Part shown: piece after piece, positions 113 to 30,600 of the stretch
Layout of the letters: the number at the start of each line of letters is the position of its first letter
Position numbering within the stretch: position 1 is the first letter of the stretch
Assembly (NCBI GenBank): GCA_046563655.1
Contig: CM102287.1
Location: 2,728,001 to 2,792,000, forward strand
Origin: Yuukianura sp. NJ FZ-2021
Taxonomy: Eukaryota
Direction of reading: 5' to 3'
Length of the DNA: 64,000 nt
Made by a program: the position numbers and the translations under genes
Notes under the pieces: generated by a model
Database searches by the model: none
Seen by the model: only the letters and a program-made list of their open reading frames with translations
Told to the model about the DNA's origin: nothing

Positions 113-1269
113 CGTTAATTCAATATCTTTCTCCGCTTCTTCTCGTACGATTGGTGTCGTTTTGCCTTCGGGCTTCTGATCTTATCTGGATAAACACAAT
201 ATCAATGGTTATACTATTATCGATGTCAAAGTTCAGAAATCAAATCAGCTGACTCTGAGAGTCACTCACCTCTGTAAACTTGGAACTTCCAAGTTGAAAG
301 GAAGACAGCACCGTAAACAACTTGCAACAGAAAGTTGTGGAGTGGAGGTCACAGAAACAATGGAGCTGGACGGCTGGACGGGACAACAAGTGCGAAACCG
401 ATGAAAATGAAAAATGGCAAACCACTAAAATGTAATCAACGGAAAACGGAACATCAACAAATGACAAAGATTTAGCATTTTTGACATTTTGGCGGCAGTT
501 GAAATTCAAATTTGAAGTGTAGGATAAAATTGGTTGGTGGTGGCTGACTAACCCCAGATGTAGATCAATTGTAATCATTTTTTAAAACAATGACACAAGT
601 AGAAATTTAGTCAATTGATAATTAAATTTAGAGTCAATTGATAGTTAGCAATAGTGTTGAATATTTTATATTGTATGTTATTTATAAATAATACATTGTA
701 ATATATTTATAACATACTGTAATATAATTTTAATATGTTATAATATTATCTCGAAATTTTACTTTGGAAGGGAACCAAACCTTGCTAAAAGTCTCCCGAG
801 TATGAAAAATTTTACTATGAACGACGAACGAGACCTTGCTAAGTGCCCCTGACTATGGAAAAACAAGTCTTTATACTCTTTCTGTGTGGAAACATTGGTG
901 CCATATTGACCTTACCTTAACCGTTGAAAAAACGAAAATGATGTTGTTTTCACTTTCACCTCACCGTAATAACTAATAAGAAATCATTCGGAATTTGTGA
1001 AAAGTGGAGCAGATGACATTCAAAAACCGATCGAACTGTATGGTTGGTCATAAAAATTACTGATTGTAAGTGTTGATTAATCTTAGCTAGCACCTGGTGG
1101 CAGTAACGGAATTCTTGAGGTAGGTACCGTCTATCCTCCAACTTACTGAAGGTACGTCACACTTTTTAGCTTATAAATTTCCTGTCTTGTTGATTTATTA
1201 ACTGCTTGATGATTGATCAATAATTTTGTTATGTTATAGGTTATTGGGATAACTTTTCCAAGGAAAACA

Positions 1270-3141
1270 ATGGAGAGGAGGAAGGGATTTGGTAAAATGA
1301 TGACGGGGAAGAGAGTCCCACCACCTCCGGAAGGTGCCGATGGCCAACCTGCGTTGCTTACACCAGTAAAACCCGTTACTCCAAGACGACCTCCATCCGC
1401 CGCTGCATCTTCAGCCTTCCAGCCATCATCGGCGCAACAACCGCTGCCTCCGGGAGCTCAAGTTCAAGAATACAATGTCCGCGTTCCCAAAACTGCGACG
1501 AAACCACACAATTTGATGCGATTCAACGATGCCCTGAATGTAGACTTTTCGAAATGGGTCAACGTCAGAATGCAGCGAGAGGACAACTCTCATCTCTACA
1601 AACTCCCGGAATTTGCACAAGTAGAAATGCCAAAGTTTGGAGCCGGATCAGAGTTTGGCAGGGATCAACGTGAAGAGGCTCGTAAAAGAAAATATGGATT
1701 CCATAAGAAACGATACAAGAGAGAAAATCAGCCTTGGATCCTGAAAGCTGGAACTGGAGATACAACCAGAAAGTAAAAGTCGCGAGTATTTTCTCATTTA
1801 TGAAAAATACTGAAATTGTACTTTCTATAATTTCAGATTCAAAGGATTACGTGAAGGTGGTGTGAATGAAAATGCTTCGTACTTTATCTTCACTCAGAGT
1901 CAAGATGGTTGTTTCGAGGTGTTCCCAATCCAGGAGTGGTACAACTTCACTCCTGTCCAGCGTTACAAAGCCCTGTCAGCGGAAGAAGCCGAGGAACAGT
2001 TTAGTAAACGCAGTAAAATCCTCAACTTATTTTCTGTGATGGTCCAAAAACGAATTCGAGAAGACAAGGATGACGGAGAAGAGTCCGAGAAGGGAGAGAA
2101 GACGAGTAAAGGCAGAAAAGCTACTGACATGCAGTTGACAGACATGGACGACTGGGTCGTCGAGGAAATGGATGACGATGACGATTCAGAAGAAGGCGGA
2201 GAGGAAGATGGGGACAAACCAAAGAAAAACAAGAGTGAGTTCTGGATTTTTGTTAAAATTCATACTTGATTGATTTCACATCTTGAATTTTTTTATCTTT
2301 ACAGAAAAACCAGGCAAAGATAAGGAGAAGAAGAAAGATTCGGACGATGACTTGGACATGGAAGATTCCGACGACGGAGACGAAGAAGGGCGGGAACAGG
2401 ATTACATGTCCGACGTCTCTTCGTAAGTATTTCTTAGTTAGTTACCGAGCTTAAGTTAAAGTTAATTGGTTAAAAGTTAATTACTTAACTAATCTTAACA
2501 GAGAAAGTGAAGATGAAGAGGAGAAGAAGCCCGACTTGCCCGGAATCGACCAGGACGACAACCTACGAGCGTTGTTAGAATCCGAAAGTTCTTCCGAAGA
2601 AGAAAAAGAAGCGAAGAAAGAAGAAGGTGAAGAAGAAACAGAAGTTGCAGAGGGTGAAAAGAAAAAGAAATCCAAGAAAAAGAAGAAAGGAGACAAGAAG
2701 AGTTCAACGCTTCCAGACGCTCCAGCGCTCACTGACGAATCACCTCCAGAAGATCCTGTTGATGTCAAAAGTGAACCTGGAGTCGATGTCAAGCCGAAGA
2801 TCGAAACTTCACCAGCAGCCGAAGAAGGAGGAGCAACTAAACGCAAAGCTCCGTCTGACCTTGCTACTCCTCCAGCTCCGAAGAAGGTCAAAGTTGACTT
2901 GCCTCCTTCAATGCTTCAACTGGCTTCCTCCGAAGGAATCACGGAGGATGCTGTCAAGAAGTATCTTCTACGGAAGCCCATGACGATCGCTGAACTGCTC
3001 CAGAAGTTTAAGCCGAAGAAGTCCAAGATTTCCAGTAACGATATGGTCCCAATCATTGCACATATTTTGAAGAACTTGAATCCAGCGAAACGATCTGTGT
3101 CCAACAAAACCTACTTTTTCATCAACAACAAAACTTCATAA
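1270..3141 (+). CDS. GTF2F1: General transcription factor IIF subunit alpha (RAP74/TfIIFalpha)
   Basis: Exons 1270-1772, 1837-2234, 2305-2422 and 2502-3141 join in frame via GT-AG introns. Motifs EYNVRVPK, MPKFGAGSEFGRDQREEARKRKYG, QPWILK, KFKGLREGGV, WYNFTP..YKALSAEEAEEQF, an acidic middle region and a C-terminal winged helix (ITEDAVKKYLLRKPMT..LLQKFK). The start ATG could be 1270 or about 1297. Confidence 0.96.
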
Positions 3142-4727
3142 AACGTCAAAACTTCAACACCTAATTTCACACACCAATGAAAATCGTCAACACAGAACTC
3201 TTCAGAAGTGAAAATCATCAACTCTTCTGATTTTGAGTATGATTAATTTTGGATTCTTTATTTTATGTAATGTTGGGGAAATCTTTTGTATATAAAGAAA
3301 AGTTAAAGTTATCTAAATTTTTAAAAAATATTCGTTTCGCTTGATTATTAAAAGTTAGTTTAACTTTCAAATCAATATAACTTGAATGTAAATTTTTGAT
3401 TAATCGAAAACTTAGCTAGAAATTAAGCGATTTTCGGTCTGAAAGATGTTTACAGAAAAAAAAATCTTACAAAAAGCTCACAAAAATCTAACACATATAA
3501 AAACTAATAAAATAATATAAAACGCAAGTGAACAATATTTTTTGGAACCACTTACCTAGTTGAGACAATCTGAAATTTTGACAGTAGTCACTAGTGAATT
3601 GCCATTAAAAACTACGAGTGGCGTCAATGTTCAAATTTGTAAAAAATTATCCTGATTTCAGAGCTGAAATTGTTCTGCTCGTCTTCCTAATGGATTTTCA
3701 TTTTCATGTTAAAATATGAAGCGTTTCTCGTTCAACTTCTGCCAGAAGATTTTCAATCAATTGACGCGGTTTCGTATTCGGACAGAGCGACAGTGACGAC
3801 AGGAAACAGTCACGCGAATTCCGGAAATAACTAACGAGAAACACAAACAGAAATTGGCAACATCTTTTTTCAATTTTACAAATTTTTCAAAAATTTCATG
3901 AAATTTCATACTTGCAAACATCTTCTGAAGTTGTCAAGTTCTATTTATAGTCAGTCGCAGTATTAAAACAACCTAGGATCGGTTCTCTGTGTTCCAAAAC
4001 ACAGTTGATTCCACCGGATTCCAGGAACTCTAATAAACAAAACATCTCGAATTTGCAAAAATTTGAATTTGTACTACAAATGCATAGGTTTTTTGAAAGT
4101 TACGGATGATGCTTTGCCATCCTCCCGAGCACAATTATCGAGGATAAGGCGACGAGGTTTGAGACATCCCTTCCCAGGGATTGCGAAATTTTGCTACAAA
4201 TTGGTTCGATGTACTAAATGTGACGAAAAATTTCCAGTTGCGTTGGATTCTCGCGTTTTGTTGGATTAATGAGAACGTTGTTGTAGCTTGTTGGTTCCTG
4301 AGCTATGATAGTGCGCAGACATTCACTCCTTCAGTTCTTTTTCCTAAAAAGCGAAAAAATTAGTAATTTCAATACTTTTTAACATAAAAGTTTGCATAAA
4401 ACTTGCCAATTTTTGTCAAGCTCAACATGACGGAAAATGAGAAAAATATGAACTTTACCTGGGTTGGGAATTCACGTTGTTGCAAATATGTATGTAAACT
4501 GTTAGTACGAGTCTTTTATGCAAAACAATTTGCAAACTTTTGCAAAAGCTGATTGTTGTCTCAACGATTAGCGTTGGAACAGAGACTGCCTGTCGTCCTT
4601 TAATACATTCTTTGTCACACAGTTTGGAAATTTGGTATGATGAGTCGTAAACCATGTCCAAAGCAAAGGTAGATTTTCTTTAGAAACGGTAAAATTCTAA
4701 TTTTAGGCAAACAAAACCGTTGGACAT

Positions 4728-5363
4728 TTGTATTGTTCGGAAACAAAAATAGAAAAAGGGAGAAAAGATGCCTTACCCAAGGGTCCCTTCGAGTCCAACT
4801 TTGTGGACGTTTTGGTTTGGTGGAAAACAAGACAATTGTGTCTTGTACCACCCCCAACGCCGATCCGAGGCTATAAAAGCCTCTACGACCAGGTCAACAA
4901 GGTCATTCCTAACATAGCAAGTCAATTGAAGAACGAAGAAGAGGAAGGAATGGACTCGGACTCAAGCAACATTTTTTTCCTTTCCACGCACTATCCGCTG
5001 ATGGGTCTCTTGGCTGGCGCTGGGTTGGCCAGTGTTACATTTGGCTGCGCCATCTTGATCAGGAAGAGATGGGGGCCAAACAATCGCCATCTTGACGCCG
5101 AGGAGCAACGACCAAAACTTGACATTGCACAGGGACAGCAAGTCGAAGATGTCCGAAAAGATCTGCGACACATCGTTGAACTACAGGAACTACAAATCAC
5201 TATACTTCGAGACGTTGCTGACTCAGTGAGAGACGTTGCTGACTCAGTGAGAGATTTGACTAAGGAAATGAAAAGACAAAGAAACGTAAGTTTATGCATT
5301 TTTTATTTACTTATATATATTTTTTGTTCGCATATAATTTTTGTTGGCTTTGTTGAACAGTGA
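4728..5363 (+). CDS. Orphan ORF: single predicted TM helix plus short coiled coil; true 5' exon structure uncertain, may be decaying
   Basis: 211-codon open frame in AT-rich DNA with hydrophobic LMGLLAGAGLASVTFGCAILI followed by RKR, heptad-like VRKDLRHIVELQELQITILRDVADSVRD, and an in-frame 21-nt duplication. Acceptor ttttag at 4706 is in frame. A likely 75-nt phase-0 intron at 5286-5360 (gtaagt...aacag) gives the same TGA at 5361 whether spliced or not. Confidence 0.5.
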   Translation: MYCSETKIEKGRKDALPKGPFESNFVDVLVWWKTRQLCLVPPPTPIRGYKSLYDQVNKVIPNIASQLKNEEEEGMDSDSSNIFFLSTHYPLMGLLAGAGLASVTFGCAILIRKRWGPNNRHLDAEEQRPKLDIAQGQQVEDVRKDLRHIVELQELQITILRDVADSVRDVADSVRDLTKEMKRQRNVSLCIFYLLIYIFCSHIIFVGFVEQ

Positions 5364-5440
5364 CGCGAACTGATTCGATGACAAAGGCAATGGATTTGGA
5401 CTTGTAAATATATCTACCCTACTACTCCTTTTACATCTGA

Positions 5441-5480
5441 CAACAAGGCCCTTTTAAGGGCCACAAAATCATACAAAGAG
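5441..5480 (+). terminator. Replication-dependent histone mRNA 3'-end signal (16-nt stem-loop plus histone downstream element)
   Basis: CAACAA-GGCCCT-TTTA-AGGGCC-ACAAA: 6-bp stem at 5447-5452/5457-5462 with a 4-nt loop, and purine-rich AAAGAG at 5475-5480, starting 13 nt after the stem. This matches the SLBP/U7 cassette architecture. Confidence 0.75.
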
Positions 5481-6031
5481 CAAAAAGATCCCTCCAGTCA
5501 AGTCCATTCCGGGCAAATGCTTAGTCCAGATTATGTGGACTCCAGAAACATTAAATTATTATATTTTTTCAGATGTGGAGGCAGAATGCCTAAGGGGACG
5601 CCTCTGGATACCTGTCATTTTTAAGTGAGTGATCAAGTTAAGGTAACTCCGTTCGCTCCGTACAGTCTCCTATCTCAATTTCACCAAAACCACATCTACC
5701 TTTACGATTCCTATGATCCCGAATTCAAGACATTGCAACTTTTCGCCATTTCAAATAAGTTGTAAACAATCATTTCGCTTATTTTGCTGCAAAAATTTTT
5801 CCGAAAAATGAACCTGAAGAATTCCTCCAATTAAAAAACATCGCCTAAAGCATTATATAATTTGCAACTTTGAACCACCAATTCGAATTCCTAAACAAGA
5901 TATTAAAGAATCCAAATTCGCAATAGTTGTCAAAAACGTTTACAAAATTTTTTAACTCTCAATCCATTTTATTATTGCATTAATTAATTACTAGCAACCA
6001 TAAAATTCTCATGCAAGTAGATTATAATTTT

Positions 6032-9000
6032 TTACATAGCAAAAGTTATGAAACTCATGAGAAAGAGAAAAGTAGTGAAAGTAAAAAGGGCCCAATAGAT
6101 AAGGCAAGTACTTAAGGTCTCATTGCTATAATTCAAAATCGTTTCGAATTCCGTTTCGTTCATGGTCCGGTATCGATTGTCTTCGAACCGGTACAAATTT
6201 AGGCCCTGCGAAACTCGCGGAATGAAATCTCTCCATACAATTCTCGCCAATTTCGAACTACCGTTGACGGTAACTCCGGTTTCTAGGAACGGCCACTTTA
6301 GTTGCCAGTGGTTCCAGTATGTTTTCAGCAAGGTCAACCTTGACTTCCGGAAGCAGTTGAGTGACCTTTCGTCAAAGGTCACTTCCCTTGGAATTATTAC
6401 CAAGTTGACCTTGACTACTCTTCGGCTCTTGCGGTCCATAATTCGGAGCATTTCGGATTCAAAGTGACACAAAGGAAGAGGAGACTCGGCTATGGAGAAC
6501 ACGCGAACTTTCTTATCCAATTCCATTCTGAGCACGGTTTTTGGAAGGTCGTGGACATACTTCACAAACTGGAAGTCATTGTTGACCTCGTCCCGGTCAA
6601 GGTCAAGTTCTGGAACCAAATGCTTGGAAGTTAGGATAGTTTTCCAGGTTGAAGGGATGGATAAGACAAATATCGGAGGAATGGAAGTCATTTGGGCCAA
6701 GAGAATGTCGACGTGCGTGTCGTTGAACCTTTGCGGCAAGTATGCTGCGTTGAATTCCAGAAAACTGGACAAAAGTCCACTTTGGTTCAAGTAGCCCCAG
6801 AAACAAACTGCGACAAGGTTGAATCCAAACCATGACAGCCCAAGCTTCCAGCTGAATCTGTCCAAGCAAAAAAAAAGTAAAATTTAGAAAACGAGAGTTT
6901 GTTTCGGATTTTGGACATGACCGGACATTTTTAATGTTAAGATATTAAAAAACATTAAAAATGACTTCTTATTTTGGATGCTGCATATTCGAAATTTTAA
7001 TGCTGCTACAAAGGTTTTTTTTTTTTCAAAAATAAAACCGCTCTACTCCCTTCCAAGCCCAAAACGAGAGTGAACGAGAATAATTTGGTGAGCTTTCCTT
7101 TTATATGGAAAAGGAAGGAGTCACCACACGTAACTCCTCTTGTTGTTCTCCATTACGTCCGCACTCATTTGAACTCTTTTGAGGAGTAACTGGTAACTCC
7201 TTTGGAGTAACCTGTTACTCTTTTGCAGATTTCTGATTGGCCGGCAAAATTGCCATCGGCCAACTCACATGCATGTCAAAATCTTTGCACGTAATTTGGT
7301 GGAAAAATTTCCAAAGAACGTCATAACTTCTCATCAAATCAAAATTTTAAAAACTGACCTTGACACGATGGGTATTTTGTGTCCATGGAGTATCACTAGA
7401 GGGAAGATGAGCGGTGCGAGGTCAAAGGTCGACTTGTACTGAACCATGGCCATAAGTGGTATGAACCAGGAACAGTTGAGAAACGTCCACTGTGAACTTA
7501 AGCGCGGTTTGTACTTCCAATTTTGAAAGAGTAGTGCGTAAATTTCTCGCGAAATTGATAATATTCCCAACAATCCAAGGACGTTGAACATCGTCAAAAA
7601 GTTTACACTAATCCAGGGAATCGTTTCAAATTTTCTAATTGATGATGATTTAGTTACAAAGTAATTGACTGGAGTAATCACAAAGCTGGAACTGTTTAGG
7701 TTAAGGTCATTCAGATCTTGTAAAGATACGCGCCTGTGGTAAAAAGAGTCCCATAGTATAAATGGAATTGACATTCCACAGAAATATGCAATGAAAATGA
7801 ACAATCGCAAGTGAAACTGCGTCATTCCAATATGCGAATTGCTGATTCCGCGTTGGAGGTAGAAGAAAATCGGGACAGAACCGAACGATAAGAAAAAATC
7901 CGGGTCATTGAAAATTCCGAAGACGATTGTCAGTGCAATCCAGTGTAAATTATGGATTGGATTGTAGCGAAATGATTTTAGTTCTTTTAAAAGTTTCACT
8001 TTTTGTCGTATTTTTTCCATGTGATCTTCCGTTTTCTGGCGATCTTTTTCCAACGGATCGGTTTTTTCGTGTCCCGGTACCACGTGATCCTTATGGTCGC
8101 CATTTTCGTGTGACAACGAATCTTTCTCGCATGATTTCCTCTTTACTCCGGCTCCGTTTCTTGCTTTAGTCGAACTTACGGTTGGTTTCGGTTTGCTCTG
8201 CGGTACGGATTTCACTTTTGGCGTCGTTTCATTTTTCGTAGAACCTTTTTGTATGTTAATTGCGTGAAATTCGTTTAGAATTGGCAAGTACTCGTCCATG
8301 TAATGCATTGAATCGGACACCAAACACAACAAAATCCCGAAGAAAATTGTGTTTAGCAAAGCAGCGTGCGTTCTGGAGGTGAAGACAAGCACAATCTGAG
8401 AACTGGCCAACGTGACGAGTCTGGAATATTGTCCGTAGGTGTTGGGCTTAAGATCAGGCGTAGGATCAAGCTCAAGGTCATCTTCCAAAGGAACTTTTCT
8501 GCGGGGTTTTCGATCTTGTAGGGAAAAGAACTTGATGAGGATGAGATCCAGTGCAAATGACAGTAGGACATGGGCTAATCGTGGTACTAGAATCAGTGCT
8601 TCTGGATTTGGCACTGATTCTTCCTGGATTATCGGGTGAGAGTTGCTTAGAAACCGATGTGTCAAAATGTAGGGAATGTAGACAGTCAGATGCGGAAATA
8701 CAATTGACCTTGTTGGAAACGTCGAGTTGAACGCTGCTGATTTGTGAACTTGCAGATCAAAGTAATCTCCTAAAAAGAAAAAAACAAGTTAAGATTCAGA
8801 AAAGTTATTGAAATTACGAAATCTTAAATTGAATTACTTGTAATTGAATTCGTGTACTAATTGAATTACCTGTAATTATTTCCAGCGATTGAAACTCCTC
8901 CGAGTGTATCCAGCCCATTTGCAAGTTTAACGTTAGCAGAATCCTCAGAACTAGAAAAAGTTCGTAAACCTGTTTGAGCCGAACTCCCTGGACAGCGTTT

Positions 9001-9071
9001 CTCGGTTCGATTCGAACCAGTGCTGAATTATGCTGCTCACAAGCAATACGATGAACCACGTCCAGTTTCAT
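6032..9071 (-). CDS. PIGZ: Divergent GPI mannosyltransferase 4-like (PIG-Z/SMP3, GT22/Alg9 family) multi-TM protein
   Basis: Exons 9071-8870, 8769-7359 and 6857-6032 join in frame, merging three ORF-track ORFs. Colinear with recalled PIG-Z motifs: QMGWIHSEEFQSLEII (GYVHPDEFFQSPEV), RSIVFP, LILVPRLAHVLLSFALD (LLVGPRLLLTALSFALD), LASSQIVLVFTSRT, GIFNDPDF, ITPVNYF, FNLVAVCFWGYLNQSGL (FNALGALLFGCLHQGGL). Confidence 0.8.
7015..7280. mobile_element. Dispersed repeat copy 1 (non-autonomous element), in PIGZ-like intron 2
   Basis: Reverse-complement match to 51815-52172, e.g. cggcaaaattgccatcggcc, tgaacgagaa..gagctttccttttata and the gagtaac-n2-gttactc palindrome. Boundaries are approximate. Confidence 0.75.
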
Positions 9072-9470
9072 TTTTCTTAGGCTGGGTTTAATTCCTCTCA
9101 AATAACTTAAGCAATTAATCAATTAGGTTATAAATTAGGACACAAATAGTTAGTATAATTAATTGAGTTGTAGAGCAGCACAAATCCACAAAAAGTATTC
9201 AATTTACAAAGGTTTATCCAAAAAAGTGAATTGTAACAAATACAAGACGAAACATTCAAATGCAAGAGAAAAGTGAAAACTTTTGGATACAAATCGATAA
9301 CCTTTCTCTTTTACTCTAACAGAAAAACCGAGCTAACACTCGGATGAAATCGAGCAAGCTACCGAGTACAAGTTACTGGCTACGTTATGGTAATGATTAC
9401 GAAAATGTTATGCTAATGGTTACTCACTAAGAGTTATTTAGAAGATAAACTTACGGTTTTTCGCGGCATT

Positions 9471-10379
9471 TTAGTTTTGAAAAAGTCTACGGACTGGCGG
9501 ACGGGTGCCCGGTGGTGGAGGATTTTCTAGACGATGTCCGCCATTTTGTTCTTGATCTCCGCTGGCTATCTTGACAAATTGGTCCAAGTCCATCTGGATC
9601 TGCTTGATGTTGACTTCCATCTCGCGCCACTGTTTGTACAAATCGCTCTTGAATTGATGATTCCGTGCCTTCTCCAACTGCACATTCTGCTGATCGAGTT
9701 CCAACATCTCCAAATCTGTACAAAGTGCCTCCTGATTGGCGAAAACTTCTTCACGCCATGCTTCCACTTCTGCCTTCTCCGCTGCAAGCTGCGCCATCTC
9801 AATTCCGATCTGCTGTTTCTCCGCTTCCAACTGCGCCTTTTCAGTTGCCAGATTTGAGAAAGCTTCTTTCCGCATTGCTTCGACCTCTCCTTTCTCCAAT
9901 GCAAGCTGCGCCTTCTGAATTCCGATCTGCACTTTCTCAGCTTCCAAGTTCGCTTTTTCAGTTGCCTTCTCGTCTTCAAACGAGTCTTTCTCGATTGCGA
10001 AATGATCAACTTCCAGATCCAGCTTATCACTTGCCTCTTGCAACTTCAATTTCTGCTGTCGGATAGCCTCCTTCTGGACCTCCAGATCCTGTTGATCAAT
10101 TTTCAATTGGTCTATTTGACCTTGGATTCGCAAGGCTTCTTTCTTGAGGTCAGCTTCCAGTTCTTCCAAGGCAGCTCCTTTTTCGGCTAACTCTTTTCCG
10201 TGGCGTTCCACTTCCAGTTCCTTCTTGTCAGTGTCGTCCAGCGATCCTCGAGCACGTCGACGTTCACGATGAGCAGCCATACGGGCTTTCATAGCCTCAA
10301 TGGTTGAGTTCTTTCCAGTGTCTCCGCCTCCCCACCCGATAGTCGAGCCGCCATTTCCCAGATTCATCTCTGCAAACAT
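9471..10379 (-). CDS. Orphan E/K/Q-rich coiled-coil protein, 302 aa, single coding exon
   Basis: Long ORF with gene-like GC content, continuous heptad character, an internal 39-aa (117-nt) tandem duplication, a Gly-rich N-terminus and a Pro-rich C-terminus. Probable 5'UTR intron (donor gtaagt at 10447). Confidence 0.7.
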   Translation of the reverse strand: MFAEMNLGNGGSTIGWGGGDTGKNSTIEAMKARMAAHRERRRARGSLDDTDKKELEVERHGKELAEKGAALEELEADLKKEALRIQGQIDQLKIDQQDLEVQKEAIRQQKLKLQEASDKLDLEVDHFAIEKDSFEDEKATEKANLEAEKVQIGIQKAQLALEKGEVEAMRKEAFSNLATEKAQLEAEKQQIGIEMAQLAAEKAEVEAWREEVFANQEALCTDLEMLELDQQNVQLEKARNHQFKSDLYKQWREMEVNIKQIQMDLDQFVKIASGDQEQNGGHRLENPPPPGTRPPVRRLFQN

Positions 10380-11768
10380 TAGGAGATAGCAATTGGATAA
10401 GCTTTCATTAGTTCCTAAACTAACTAAGGTGTCAGTACTTAACTTACCAAGTCAGAAGAGGTCAGCGTTAGGATCAGACACTCCTGTCCTTCTTACAAAG
10501 AATCGCTATTCGCTAGTGCTGGTGGGACGGTGGGAGGTTTCTTCTTGTCTTTGATATTCCGATCTAACTTCCGGTTAAAGATGGCTTCGTAAGGATCAAG
10601 TTAATGCAAGTATCGACTATCGAGATTCTGATATCGAGATAACGAGCAAATATCCTGGATGGAGGAGCGAATGAAAAATGACACAAAAACGACGAAAACA
10701 AATTTCTCAGCCGGTGAACATGAACACGAACAGTTTAATAGGGAAGGGAAGTTCCGTTAATGGGATCACGTGGTACGTATGCAGATAAGCAAATAATTTT
10801 AAGCGGGAAGTCCAAATTCAAATACAGGGGTAACTAATCCTCGGATTTTTGAAACTTCTCACCTAGCGAATATGTCTGACGAAAAAGTTAAACCAGGCGA
10901 TTAAAGTATTTAATTAATTATGTATAATAAATCAAATCGCAAATGATTTGAGTTTAAAAGTTTGAAATTTATTTACGTGAATAAACACCTACCCCCCACT
11001 CCATTCATCTGCACCCGACACACAGACGCGTTCAAGAATTTTATATAAGAAACATTAATTCTTAATTATTGGGGAACATAAAAATAAAACAGGTAAAATT
11101 ATAAGATTATCATTGACATTTCGAAATGCAAAGCCAGTTTACATCTCTTTTGTGTTCTGAATCAGGAGAGCGATAAATAGTAATAGTTAATGCTAAACAC
11201 TAATAAAAGTTTCTAAAAACCAAAAAGGGAAACCAGTTTAAAAGTTTTTCTTGAACATTTTCTAAACCTATATACGTTTTGAATACCCTCATAAATTGTG
11301 AACTAAAATGTGTTTCATTTCAAGTTATGGCTTTAACTCAATTTTTATAATTAATAGTAACTAAATTTATGACACAATTTCATATCCATTCATACTTTTA
11401 GTCACTACTATTTGTGTGGATTTCTACTATGTTACAAGGGGGCAGTTTCTGAAGCTGTCTAAACCCATCATGAATTAGCAATTACTTGGTAATTAGTTTA
11501 ATTACAATACATTTTATAACTCTGTTTGAGCCAAACAGACTACAAAGTTAGCCTAACTGGTAAAATGTCTTGATTTGCTAACTTGAATTTGTGAATTAAA
11601 GCATAGGATTTGTATTTAAAACTACTTAATAAGGAACAGCAATACTTTTGCAAAAATCTACAGAGGCAGAGAAGCATTTCTCTCAAAATCTGAAACAGGA
11701 AACTACTTTTTTGAAACTTTCACTTTTTTTTTTCGAAATTTGAAAACAGATGGGTTGAAGTTGATGAC

Positions 11769-14700
11769 CTAAACATGATCTGATGGTGAAGATTTCCAAG
11801 GAGTAAGACCCAGAACTAAATTACGAGGAGAATGACCCATTCTTTGTGCACGAGCTGCAAAAACAAAACAAAAGTTCAAAAATTAGTACAATTTAAAAAG
11901 ACAATCCACTCAAATGTTCAAAAATTCTAAAATTTTCTGTTTCTCTGTTTGAAAATCTAAATATCTTCCCAAAACTAAAAATTCCAGCAAATAACAATCG
12001 CAACACTTTCGAATTCGACATCGAATGAAAACAAGCCAAAACGAAAATTTTGGGAAGAAAATGAAAAAGTCACACTTTTGTAAAGGAATCGGAGATGAAG
12101 ATTACCTGTCTGTCAATTTGCAATTATTCGAAACATTTTCATCAACTAAACTCGTCAGTCTTCTCAAAAAATCAACTTTTTCGTAATTTCACTTTTTGAA
12201 AATAAAACTTAAAATGTTCTCAAGTCCGCAACACTTAAATTAAACTAACCACGACACAATTAAGAGGGAATCGTCACATATTTTTAAAAAACGTTACTAA
12301 AACCTGAAACTGTGTAACTGTTGTGTAGAAGGTCAGAGGTTGTGACAAAACGTGTTTAAGCTTAAGCTAGCACAACAATAGACGAAGACACAAATGGAGA
12401 AGGTCACAAACAGAATTTCATTTGAAACAGCTTCAAGTAGAACAGAAGAAAGACGATGGTGACGACAGGGAGTTTAGGCGTTGCGCTTTTTGGATCTGCG
12501 TTCTGAAACGTTTTACAGAAATTTTTTAAAAAGCAATTTTTTTGAAAACTAAAAATTCAAACGCACCTTCACAAATACATGCCTTTCGTGAACTCAAAAA
12601 AACGACATTTACATGCTCAAAACTCAAAAATACAGACGACATTCTCTGAATTACCAAACTATTAGTTGAAAGTAATTGAATTAGCTAAGTAATTGAATTA
12701 GTTAAGTAATTACTTGTAATTACCTGGTAATTAGTAACTTCTGCTAACTTTTGGAATTGGTTTGAGGTTGCAGGTTACTGGTCACGCCCAATTCGCTTCA
12801 ACCGCCCTACGTTATGCACAAAACAACACAAAAATCACACACATGCACTTTTTAGTAAAAAGTTAAACTTTTTAAGAGAAAAGTGAAAACTAAGAGTTAA
12901 AAGTTAGGTGTAATTAAAGTTAAAAGTTAAGTTTAACTCAACAGGCAGAGTTAGTTTAACAAAAACACCAAATCATCGTTAAAGTTAATTGAGCCGTTAG
13001 TTAATTAGCTTACTTCTGTCCAAGTTTCGTTGTAAGTGAGTGGCTACGCGATTCCTGGCATCGTTGTATTCAAAATGAAGTCCTAGTCTCAGAATGACTG
13101 GATTTTGCTCTACTAAGGTCGTAATGTCAGTTTCAATTTTATTTCCCAGCGTCTGTTGTCTCTGGAATTTCAAAAATTTAGAACAAAACAAAGTCATTAG
13201 TAAGTTTTCAGCGTCTTTCCTTGGAGCAACATTGGTAGTTTCCATTTGGTGTAAAAATGAATAACTGCGCTTTGGACGACCTACTACTGTGAAATCCAAA
13301 ATCATATGGAAACTTTTCAATCGTCTCTACCAAGATTATCTTTCGCTGCATCGCTTGGAGCGATTCGCCTAAACTGGCAACTTGCCTTTTCTCTACCCGT
13401 TGGCAATGATTAATCTTTTTCCTTGAAGCGTGCAACATGAAAAGTATGACAATGATTTCTAAAAACAGTGACACAGCAAGCGTCATCAGCAGCAGTATTT
13501 CGCTTCAATGACTTTGGATTTTGAAAATTTTGAGCAACGCAAAAATCGCTTCCAGCGAAACTCACTTGGTTCGAAGCTCGGAATTCTTCAACGTACTTCT
13601 GACAGAGCAAGGATTTGACCAAAGCGACGAGCGTAGTTGGGCTCAAATTGTTCGACTCCACACTGAAAACAGAAAACAGAACTCAAAATTACGAAATTCA
13701 AAAATTAGCACATCGTAAACATGTCACATGTCATCTTTGTATCACTAAACTAAACATGAAATTTTCAAATTAAGGTCGCAGAGATTCATGGTGGCACCAA
13801 TAAGTGATACGTTTCAGTTTTTCAAATAACTGAAACGAATTACGCTTCTTTTTGGCCTTTGTTTTCTCTGAAGCTTGCCAAACCTCCTTGAAGACACGCA
13901 AATAAAAAATGCGAAATGTCTTAACAATATTTTGATTCAGCGATTCAGGAATCAGAGTATTCCTGAATCGCTGAATCTCAAGGTGAGAAGAACCTTTGCC
14001 AAAATATTTTGGGGACATTTAGCTCATTTTGGAATCTGATCTTTGTCTTAATTTAAAAAGAGAGTGATAAATATCTCACTTGATGGTACGTAGTGAGCTA
14101 TTCTTTTCAAGGGCATCAGCCAGTACGAGTCCAGGCTTGTCCCCGAGTCCTGTGTTGGACAGGCTCAAAGACTCCAAGTGGGTGTTCGACTTTAGAGCCT
14201 CGAAAAGGGAAATGAAGTGCTGATCTGAAATCTATTTCAACATAAAAAGTTCAATTAATGTCACTTTCAAGGTTTGTTTTAGTTGAAGAGTGGGAAGTTT
14301 TCATATCTTACTTGGATATTGTTCAAATTGAGTTTGGTCAGATTGTAGTCGTCGTCCCGTGTCTGTTTGATGGATTTCTCAATGTCAGTTAGATTCGGAG
14401 GTTCAAAGGGCAAAGCTTTGGGTTGGTAGGCTTTGGCTGTTCCGTTGAACCCAAGTCCAAGTTTCTGTCCTTTGTTGAGCAAGGAATTTTGGTACTGCTC
14501 TTGATTCATCATCGAATGGAATCCCAGAATTGCTAAAAAGGTCAAGGTGGGGTCAATTTTAACTGAAAACTTGAAGGTACTGATGTAGTTCTTAAAAAAC
14601 TTAGTTTTACCAGCCAAATCGACGAGTTCTTCTTCGGAAGCGTGTGTCAGAGCATTCTCGTACTCGTCACCCAAGTCAATGGCAATTTCCTCCTCCTGTT

Positions 14701-27697: not shown

Positions 27698-30600
27698 TTA
27701 CGAAAGAATACAATTGTTTTGACTTGGAGATTTCTTTGTAACGAGAGCGAGAGCGTCGTTTGGAATACAGTTGACCTTGAGGTTGGCATTCGTTCTGCTA
27801 AAAGTGTAGTTTAAGTAGTCGTCGTCATCTGACGAAGAAGAGGAAGATGAGGAACAAGTTGAACACGTTGGGCCATGCGCACGCGCAACTCCCGCGTCTG
27901 GTTCAAATCTAACGCGGTCACGGCTCTTTGACCTCGATGACCCTGCCGCCGCGGTGAGCCGTGATGAACTTTGACCTGTTCCTGAGGTGGACGGAAGAGA
28001 CAAAACTGCGCCGTCGGGCTGAGAATGAGGCTGGACCGACGCAGAAACTCGCGAATTTTGAGTTTGAGATTGCGTCGATGCAGAAATTCGCGAATTTTGA
28101 GTTTGCGATGCAGAAATTCTTGTAGACTGGGAACGAACTGTGACTTTTTTGGGTGGGGCGGTTGACTTCGGAGAGAGACTTGAAGAAGGGGGTGGGATTC
28201 GTGAGGTGGGTCTTCGGTGGGACGAAATGAGGGGGAGGGGACTTGGGGGTGGCGTATTTGGGGAGGGGGAAGAATCTCCCCTGGGGGGCAGGGGGCCATC
28301 GAGGGGAGAATTTTTAAGTTTAGATTCCAACAGGGGTAAAAGTTGGGGTTTTCTTGGAGGCCGAGATTTGGTGGGACTTTTGAGAATGCTGGTGATTTCG
28401 GAAGTTGAACACAGTGATAGTGGTGGTGGATTCTTGGATTTTTGGTGGGGCTCGGTGGGACTGGTGTTGGTGGGGCTGCAAAGATTGCTTTTACTGATTA
28501 ATTCACTTAACTGGCCAACACTGACACTTCCAATTCCTAGTCGGGTGACAACTTCCTTGAAATTCGTGAGGTCAACTAGAGCCGTGTCGTCTGTCACGTC
28601 AAGGTCATCCGTCTGGAGTCCAATTTCGGTTGAAGTTATTGACCTTTGACCTCCGTCAATTGAGGTCATTGACCTTTGAGCTCCATCGAAATTTGCAATT
28701 TGTTGTTCACTGGCACACTTTGCAGGAAATTGCTCACTTTCTGGAAGCTCATTTTTGGAAATGTTTGAATTTCCTGCGTTATGGAATCTTTTCATCTCCG
28801 GTTCTGCACTTTGACTGCTGGAAATGCTCTCAGGGGACTTTTGGGGTAAGGTGGCTGGTGGTGGGACTGGTGGGGACTGCTCCACCGTGATTTCAGCTTG
28901 GTGGGGCAGAAACGGACTCAGTTTGGGTGTTCTTGTTCTTTCTCCCACGGTGGCGTAGTCTGGTTCCGATCGGGGCGTTGGTGGCTCCATTTGAATTGCA
29001 GTGAATTCCTGACCTTGACTTTTAAACAATTCCTGACTTTTTAGGAATTCCCTTTTGCCAAATTCCGGACCTTGGAAAAATTCCTGATTTTTGGCGAATT
29101 CTTGATTCCTGACCGCAACTTCCTGATTTTTCGCTAATTCCTGATTCCTGACGAATTCCTGACTTTGGACGAATTCCTGATGTTTGACGAATTCCTGATC
29201 CTGACCTCTGACCTCTGTTGTTCTCCTGATTGGTTTTGCATTGGGTTTTGGTTTGGGTGAAGGCGAGGTCAAAGGCATTTTGACCCGAAAACTTTCGGTG
29301 GACGGAGAGGTCAAAGGCGTTTTGACTCGAAATTCTGCGGAAGGTGAAGATTGTTGCCTCACTTCGTTCAAAAAAGCATACAGTTTTTCTGGAGTTCCGC
29401 TGACACTGGGAGAGGGACTGTCAAGGTCACAGTGGTTGACATTTAAATACTGCTGGTCCCCCGGGGGGAGGTCAAACACGGGGGGTGGAGGGGGCGTCAA
29501 GGGGTTCGGAAGTAAGTATTCACTTGGTTTTTCATTGGATAGAAAGTCGCGTGCTTTCTTCTGTTGAAACTTTCTGTACTCTCTCACGTCTGGAAGCCCC
29601 ACCGGAGCACTTGAGGCGTCTTTTGTGGTGGGACTCAGTGCCCCACCGGCGCTATTTGCTGCCCCACCACTTTCACTTTGCTTGGAACAATCAATTGAAC
29701 AAAAGATTTTGCCCCGCCGTGGCAGAAATGGTCTCCCAAGAAGCGAACTTTTGCAGGCGCTGCATGAAAAACACTGTTCGGTGGCGTGCCAATGTTGACC
29801 ATCATGGGTCATCTGACCTGCAAGAACAAAAGTAAAATTTGTTGACCTTTTAAAATTTGACCTTTGACCTTTTAAAAGTTGAACTTTGATGCATACCTTG
29901 GTCAACTCCGATGCACTCTCCGCAACTGTCACAGTATTCGGCAAAAACCGAATCGAAACAGTTGAGACAGTACGGTTTTCCGGACTTCATGATGTACCGC
30001 ATACCGCCCAGTTCCGATCCACATTCGACGCAGGCGAAGTGGTGCATGTGCCATGCAGAATTCTCGGCTTCGGTACACTCATCGGAGAAAATTATCTAAA
30101 AAAATGAAAATTATGAAAAAATGGATTTTTTTGAAATTTTGAAACAGTTTGAGTAGGAAGTTGCGCGTGAGTTACTTCGTCACAAGCTGAGCATCTTGGC
30201 TTGAGGCTTTCTGCATGATGTCTTCCGCAGTAGAGCTTCCCCTCAGCCGTTCCGCAAAAGTAAATGAGATCCACCAGCAACTGCTTGCAAGTGGAACAAC
30301 TGAAACACTGCGGATGAAACACTTTGTTTCCAAGTCTGGAACCAACTACTCCAAGGTCGGCTGGATGCATGTACTCGGCACACTGAAAAATTCAAAGGCC
30401 AAACATCAAAAGTCAGCTTATCATCAAAAGTCAGCACCCAAAAGTCAGCCGATCGTTAGAAGGTCAGCAACCAAAAGTCAGCAGGAAAAAGTCAGGTGAT
30501 TATCAAGTGTCAGCTGGCTCTAGATGGTCAGCAATCAAAAGTCAGCAGTCAAAAAGTCAAAAGTCAGCTGATTGTAAAAAGTCAGCAAAAGTCAAAAGTC

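Follow-up and report, generated by a model that had tools for sequence, protein, structure and literature searches.

The mRNAs of metazoan replication-dependent histone genes end at a processing signal that is served by SLBP, the U7 small nuclear ribonucleoprotein (U7 snRNP) and CPSF73. The signal consists of a 6-bp stem with G-C pairs at its base and a U-rich 4-nt loop, A/C-rich flanks on either side, and a purine-rich histone downstream element (HDE). According to a preprint, 25-60 nt separate the stop codon from the element in histone mRNAs, and cleavage takes place five nucleotides past the stem-loop (bioRxiv 10.64898/2026.10.14.759114). The HDE is characterized as a sequence rich in purines, ~15 nt downstream of where cleavage occurs (PMC5435866). 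Here, we describe a signal of this kind in a 64,000-nt stretch of contig CM102287.1 of Yuukianura sp. NJ FZ-2021, which was analysed as a whole and is called the window below. The signal stands behind an open reading frame (ORF) that does not encode a histone.

Histone 3' elements located away from functional clusters are found in histone pseudogenes and in solitary 'orphon' copies, and histone 3' ends function behind other reading frames in reporter genes. To our knowledge, there is no earlier case of a non-histone gene that uses a histone-type mRNA end; a literature search retrieved no report of a non-histone mRNA with a histone stem-loop, an earlier mention being possible. Brooks et al. count 13 human histone pseudogenes and report that human genomic stem-loop matches outside histone genes are not expressed and that crosslinking immunoprecipitation (CLIP) and RNA immunoprecipitation (RIP) of SLBP in HeLa cells yielded no genuine non-histone target; histone messages are all that SLBP binds in human cells (PMC4604434). 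Amongst histone genes, spliced polyadenylated forms are described for HIST1H2BD and HIST1H2AC in three reports (PMC4604434, PMC3661734, PMC5100578).

The element in the window shares with metazoan histone 3' ends the 6-bp stem with G-C pairs at its base, the U-rich 4-nt loop, the A/C-rich flanks and a purine-rich HDE at canonical spacing, and its score falls in the range of elements that are backed by a histone ORF. In contrast to histone genes, the ORF in front of it is non-histone and probably intron-bearing, the element is located 78-83 nt rather than 25-60 nt past the stop codon, and it lies outside any histone cluster, no histone ORF being present in the 64 kb. As in H2A.X, HIST1H2BD and HIST1H2AC (PMC4604434, PMC3661734, PMC5100578), the stem-loop is followed by a poly(A) signal that may be usable, and splicing, polyadenylation and stem-loop processing may compete; however, those are all histone genes, whereas the coding sequence in the window is unrelated to histones. 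With histone pseudogenes and orphons, the element shares its location away from functional clusters, but histone coding similarity is absent in any frame, and the element stands behind another coding-like ORF. Structurally, the element belongs to RF00032 and to the stem-loop/HDE class of signals. The unit is not a replication-dependent histone gene, because there is no histone ORF, and it is not a histone pseudogene, because there is no coding remnant. We tentatively favour, with a confidence just short of even, the reading that a non-histone gene has captured a histone 3' end and makes an mRNA that ends in the stem-loop.

A complete histone-type 3' processing signal

The stem-loop element occupies positions 5442-5467 of the plus strand, on which all features described here are located unless stated otherwise. 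The two halves of the stem, GGCCCT (5447-5452) and AGGGCC (5457-5462), enclose the loop TTTA (5453-5456). They are preceded by the A/C-rich flank CAACAA (5441-5446), of which AACAA belongs to the element proper, and followed by ACAAA (5463-5467). When the window was compared with all 4227 Rfam families, RF00032 (Histone3) aligned over its full model (1-46 of 46) to 5442-5487 at 34.0 bits, the gathering score being 34, with an E value of 4.6e-6. This was the sole match at gathering in the 64 kb, and a laxer Rfam scan (E up to 1) revealed neither a second Histone3 match nor a U7 snRNA in the window. The hallmarks of RF00032 are present: the second of the six base pairs in the stem is G-C, and the four-nucleotide loop carries U as its first and third base. 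These diagnostic positions are named in the preprint (bioRxiv 10.64898/2026.10.14.759114). The region is predicted to fold into this hairpin, and equally good folding was obtained in two of 200 shuffles. Its degenerate 16-mer core occurs once in the window against 0.03 occurrences expected, and was seen in three of 100 shuffles. The 20-mer that includes flanks likewise occurs once, even when up to three mismatches are allowed, and none of 100 shuffles contained a match to it.

For comparison, public metagenome contigs were scanned for exact matches to the 20-mer, which yielded 16 loci (L001-L016); a 28-mer including both full flanks had no match in these contigs. At 10 of the 16 loci, a histone ORF is located just upstream and in sense. 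H2A (L001 and L014), H3 (L002 and L007) and H4 (L003 and L009) were recognized by reading the translations, a further H3 (L006) by the Pfam family Histone, H1 (L008 and L015) by the Pfam family Linker_histone, and H2B (L011) by Pfam Histone together with its translation. The RF00032 scores of these ten histone-backed elements range from 31.6 to 41.2 bits; thus, the 34.0 bits of the window element are inside the range of genuine histone ends. Furthermore, positions 5444-5485 of the window are 92.9% identical over 42 nt to the 3' end of the H3 gene of L006 in blastn, which detected no other similarity to the 16 loci in 4700-5700, including the 3' untranslated region (UTR) at 5364-5441.

Since cleavage takes place five nucleotides past the stem-loop, the cut is predicted at ~5466-5467. 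The HDE-like purine run AAAGAGCAAAAAG, the presumed pairing site of the U7 snRNA, is located 9-21 nt beyond this predicted cut (5476-5488), with AAAGAG beginning at 5476, 13 nt past the stem. In the alignment, the window sequence CAAAGAGCAAAAAG shares columns with near-identical elements, namely with CAAAGAGCAAAAGC of the H3 locus L006 and with CAAAGAGCAAATTC and CGAAGAGCAAAAAA of the H1 loci L008 and L015, respectively. AAAGAGC has just 11 occurrences in 128 kb (both strands of the window) and, being rare and correctly spaced, it therefore constitutes an independent signal, at ~1e-3 by our own arithmetic. Both modules of the histone 3' processing signal are present, undamaged, of canonical type and in the right orientation and position. 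The initial annotation had pointed out the stem-loop with its A/C-rich flanks, AAAGAG 13 nt past the stem, and thereby a histone-type cassette. The direct reading of the sequence, the Infernal score against RF00032, the shuffle controls and the alignment with environmental H3 and H1 3' ends all bear this out, and the stem, which had been placed about 85 nt after the TGA in the same sense, starts 83 nt past the TGA at 5361-5363.

L010 (environmental contig, 118-745) provides another example of a histone-type 3' cassette behind a non-histone ORF, and this supports the capture reading. The ORF is intronless and encodes a 170-amino-acid C2H2-like zinc-finger protein, the zinc-finger matches in Pfam being below the curated cut-offs. 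The identical 20-mer stem-loop follows 70 nt past the stop (37.1 bits with RF00032), and a downstream element of the AAGAGC type, within TAAGAGC, is located 10 nt after the 20-mer. The order of non-histone ORF, identical 20-mer and AAGAGC-type element is the same as in the window, whereas the protein is unrelated and L010 has no intron. L010 hints that, in little-studied invertebrates, other genes have repeatedly taken over histone 3' cassettes.

Some further features of the environmental loci are worth recording. L012 (83-716) contains the end of an L010 paralogue (87.6% identity over 347 nt), from its last ~26 codons through the 3' UTR and the stem-loop into the downstream flank. This piece directly follows an ORF with a DDE-transposase helix-turn-helix (HTH) domain (PF13613), which suggests that transposons are able to move or disrupt histone-type cassettes. 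5S rRNA genes were detected at L014 (670-788, minus strand; 114 bits) and L001 (1-100, plus strand; 81 bits), within a few hundred bases of H2A, indicating histone/5S linkage on these contigs. L004 (44-88, minus strand) has a stem-loop of 38.6 bits with a purine-rich downstream run, and a histone ORF is not recognizable in the 785 nt of this contig. Several tandem stem-loop-like copies are present at 96-164 of L016.

The coding-like ORF in front of the cassette

The open frame that precedes the cassette extends from 4707 to 5363, measures 218 codons from stop to stop and is the eighth longest in the window. Its first ATG, at 4950, opens a putative coding exon of 112 codons (P0001; 4950-5285). 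Upstream of this ATG, the frame is open for another 81 codons without an ATG (4707-4949). The TGA stop (5361-5363) is formed by the first three bases past a putative splice acceptor, and a 3' UTR of 78 nt (5364-5441) leads to the element. A codon score trained on 2039 codons of Pfam-supported exons in the window, in which known exons score 0.10-0.39, amounts to 0.181 for 4950-5285 in frame versus -0.297 and -0.367 off frame, and 18 of 287 ORFs of at least 60 amino acids score higher. For 4707-4949, the values are 0.106 in frame versus -0.135 and -0.143 off frame. The GC content is 0.48 (0.482) in 4950-5285 and 0.44 in 4707-4949, as compared with 0.34-0.36 in the flanking non-coding DNA. From its rank amongst the longest frames, its codon bias in one frame and its exon-like GC content, the ORF looks like a coding orphan.

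No homologues were found in a word-index search of 5.8 billion clustered proteins, either with the 112 or with the 193 amino acids, and the ORF contains no Pfam family. HMMER, run against 1.84 billion representatives, returned one match, consisting of 11 short stretches of a 4741-amino-acid protein, which we read as repetitive and spurious. The nearest clusters in the ESM Atlas, unnamed bacterial or viral ones at 0.89-0.91, were disregarded because recognition was below the reliability mark. The predicted product has a short N-terminus, a hydrophobic helix at residues 17-38, where hydropathy peaks, then RKRW and a long charged helix. AlphaFold2 in single-sequence mode models helices at residues 6-41 and 61-111, with a mean predicted local distance difference test (pLDDT) score of 72 and values of 82-94 over residues 71-112. 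The best explanation of these predictions would be a small, lineage-restricted gene for a protein with one helix in the membrane and a long one in the cytoplasm. Within the exon, a perfect in-frame tandem duplication of 21 nt at 5209-5250 doubles the sequence RDVADSV (TRF: period 21, 2.2 copies, 100% matches).

The start of the gene can be drawn in two ways. The extension 4707-4949, which directly follows an acceptor-like TTTTAG (4701-4706), may be further coding sequence, which would need an upstream exon, or it may hold the promoter and the 5' UTR. For the latter, a weak candidate TATA box, TATAAAA (4872-4878), and TCATTC (4903-4908), which we take to resemble an initiator, would give a 45-nt ATG-free leader before the start at 4950. 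TATAAAA is common, with 27 copies on both strands of the window, and the same seven bases can be read as part of the coding frame that is open here. An upstream exon starting with ATG at 4427, with a GTATGT donor at 4490 and joined in frame to 4707, is possible and was not adopted, being pure pattern-matching.

The exon would be separated from the stop codon by a putative 75-nt intron, GTAAGT...AACAG (5286-5360), proposed on the basis of its splice signals, its GC content of 0.227 versus 0.482 in the exon, and its codon score of -0.596. Its size and splice signals fit the introns of the TFIIF-alpha gene in the same window (64, 70 and 79 nt). However, the segment is in frame and stop-free; unspliced reading would add 25 hydrophobic residues, with a hydropathy above 2, and end at the same TGA. 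Hence, we infer rather than observe the intron, and the gene is probably intron-bearing.

Past the stop codon, the histone cassette is the first recognizable 3' signal that is reached by the plus-strand gene. No AATAAA is present on the plus strand in 5361-6100, where ATTAAA occurs at 5550, 5830 and 5902. The first of these possible poly(A) signals (5550-5555) is located 88 nt beyond the stem; a T-rich stretch comes next, and after that a GT-rich one. A convergent neighbour on the minus strand, with its stop codon at 6032-6034 and AATAAA at 5973, ends near 5950, so the plus-strand gene must terminate before ~5950, within ~590 nt.

Origin and possible use of the cassette

If the cassette is used, SLBP would bind the stem-loop at 5447-5462 and the U7 snRNP would pair with the purine run at 5476-5488, upon which the histone cleavage complex would cut at ~5466-5467. 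At least one isoform of the non-histone mRNA would then have the stem-loop as its non-polyadenylated end, and the mRNA would come under SLBP-dependent control, either in S phase or in the germline and early embryo. We infer transcription, the splice, the capture event and the use of the cassette from the DNA. Stated in full, the proposal is that a probably spliced mRNA for a small membrane/coiled-coil protein of an arthropod-like animal would be matured by SLBP and the U7 snRNP, as the first cellular client of this machinery outside the histones, a version which we hold somewhat more loosely than the capture itself.

The cassette most probably came from the 3' end of a histone gene. Amongst all 81 stop-to-stop ORFs of at least 95 amino acids in the window, Pfam recognized no histone family. 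Tblastn with H1, H2A, H2B, H3 and H4 from the environmental ORFs gave nothing in 4300-5700 and no E value better than 0.35 anywhere in the window, and the short frames between the stop codon and the stem, across 5364-5441, had no Pfam match. The initial annotation's statements that the 64 kb hold no histone ORF and that the ORF in front of the cassette is not a histone thus stand. Its suggestion of an H4 C-terminus just upstream of the stem does not: it comes down to three residues (G-F-G, from GGA-TTT-GGA in GGATTTGGA, 5392-5400), the TAA at 5405-5407 lies in a different frame, the preceding residues differ from the H4 tails of L003 and L009, and both H4 queries found nothing in 4300-5700. 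A histone pseudogene that decayed in place was rejected, as neither tblastn nor Pfam detected a coding remnant in any frame, and neutral decay extensive enough to remove ~400 nt of coding similarity would have damaged a signal of 45 nt as well. A repeat search around the unit gave no sign of insertion borders or a target-site duplication and no terminal repeats that were convincing; the candidate terminal inverted repeats I1 (4665-4681/5687-5703) have a perfect core of only 10 nt, about what chance would give in 3.8 kb by our own estimate. In 4300-5700, Pfam detected no domain of a mobile element, transposase or other. There remain a short captured 3' fragment and a maintained functional element, which may be the same thing: co-option and capture are compatible, as the gene may now be using the very piece that it captured. 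The sense placement is also informative. Of the strand positions in the window, only 1.2-2.2% are situated 25-100 nt beyond a stop codon that ends a coding-like ORF, and such placement is therefore unlikely for a random stray copy.

Several observations weigh against a gene that has captured the cassette and uses it. The RF00032 score is borderline, as it falls exactly on the threshold, and the base at -3 of the stem-loop flank is a C, where 10 of 11 comparison sequences have an A, the C being common to the window and the H3 locus L006. The 78 nt between the stop codon and the 26-nt element are outside the 25-60 nt of histone mRNAs, the putative intron, if real, ends 86 nt before the stem, and ordinary polyadenylation could make use of the ATTAAA at 5550. 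As an orphan, the ORF has no homologue for a comparison of conservation. Finally, six of the 16 environmental copies of the 20-mer are not preceded by a histone ORF, and that of L012 adjoins a transposase-type HTH ORF; hence, stray or mobilized copies do exist. Part of this evidence would suit the main alternative, which we consider doubtful, though not negligible, and in which a histone 3' piece (~5440-5490, perhaps more) was recently copied in and hitch-hikes unused in an mRNA that undergoes splicing and receives its poly(A) tail past the ATTAAA at 5550, the stem-loop being internal 3' UTR sequence that is neutral or mildly regulatory. The T-rich and GT-rich stretches behind this ATTAAA, the copies without a histone ORF and the one beside the transposase-type ORF agree with it, as do the spacing between stop codon and element, which exceeds the histone norm given in the preprint (bioRxiv 10.64898/2026.10.14.759114), and the probable intron, which would disfavour stem-loop processing according to PMC3661734. 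Moreover, no non-histone client of SLBP is known from PMC4604434 and PMC5054213 or from the literature search. However, for a random insertion, sense placement less than 100 nt past a stop codon would be a 1-2% event, no AATAAA is available downstream on the plus strand, and neither insertion boundaries nor a target-site duplication was seen, the repeats present being short and at chance level. Also, judging from reporter work, an intact stem-loop with an HDE in a transcribed pre-mRNA should be recognized wherever SLBP and U7 are present.

It is unlikely that there is no working gene at all, with an ORF that is dying, never expressed or the cargo of an unrecognized mobile element, and a cassette that is an unprocessed stray relic. 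The lack of relatives amongst 5.8 billion clustered proteins and 1.84 billion representatives, the perfect 21-nt tandem duplication, which points to recent mutational turnover, the uncertain start and promoter, with 81 open codons above the first ATG, and the abundance of TATAAAA in the window are consistent with such a relic, but the length of the open frame (218 codons, eighth in the window), exon-like codon usage in one frame only and a GC content of 0.44-0.48 versus 0.34-0.36 argue for a gene. In addition, terminal repeats beyond chance were not found, 4300-5700 contains no mobile-element domain, and the locus is situated amongst the conserved single-copy genes for TFIIF-alpha, tropomodulin, a LIM/PET protein and ALIX. 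We give far less credence to the stem-loop ending another transcript, either a short RNA starting at 5364-5440 or a longer gene in which 5286-5573 is an intron. A strong acceptor-like TATATTTTTTCAG ending at 5573 and a donor-like GTGAGT at 5625 do flank a possible mini-exon of 51 nt; however, joining 5285 to 5574 leads to a stop after six codons, the end of the convergent neighbour at ~5950 leaves no space for further plus-strand exons, and neither an ORF nor a promoter signal that would mark a separate unit is present in 5364-5440. A mere chance look-alike of the histone stem-loop is hardly credible. The score on the Rfam threshold and the three shuffles with the degenerate 16-mer could be cited for it, but the 20-mer was absent from all 100 shuffles even with up to three mismatches, the HDE matches independently at the right spacing, and over 42 nt the identity to the 3' end of a genuine H3 gene is 92.9%. 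On the shuffles, the identity to L006 and the HDE alignment, the chance reading is close to refuted.

Surroundings and implications

The window is ordinary gene-dense animal DNA, in which Pfam recognizes TFIIF-alpha (plus strand, 1240-3141), tropomodulin, a LIM/PET gene and ALIX. A TFIIF-alpha exon matched 70 proteins at E <=1e-10, the best of them 45-68% identical, with Hemiptera, a horseshoe crab, Collembola, spiders and barnacles in the top ranks. By this measure, the host looks arthropod-like, without a close relative in the database searched with this exon. In arthropods, SLBP and U7 are known from Drosophila, as described in two reports (PMC5435866, PMC5054213). On the minus strand, 6032-10451 contains three long ORFs of 283, 484 and 326 codons without a Pfam family, the first of which, convergent with the orphan gene, has a hydrophobic C-terminal segment. 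Further along the same strand, a single ORF of 762 codons with a LIM domain (27698-29986) lies in a GC-rich island (0.48 versus ~0.37 elsewhere); nearby exons match LIM and PET, which indicates a gene of the prickle or testin type, one of whose exons is unusually long. Near the tropomodulin exon, a near-palindromic hairpin (13918-13993) has weak matches to mir-3524 on both strands (E 0.06-0.1; 28 bits versus a gathering score of 99) and is probably just a hairpin.

If the gene in front of the cassette does use it, a natural non-histone user would break the histone exclusivity of the pathway, and the capture of ~50 nt could bring a gene under control of the S-phase or maternal-mRNA type. The locus would also show, in a natural setting, whether splicing is compatible with stem-loop processing. 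If, on the other hand, the cassette is unused, it would be a clean example of a histone 3' fragment that was dispersed without its coding sequence.

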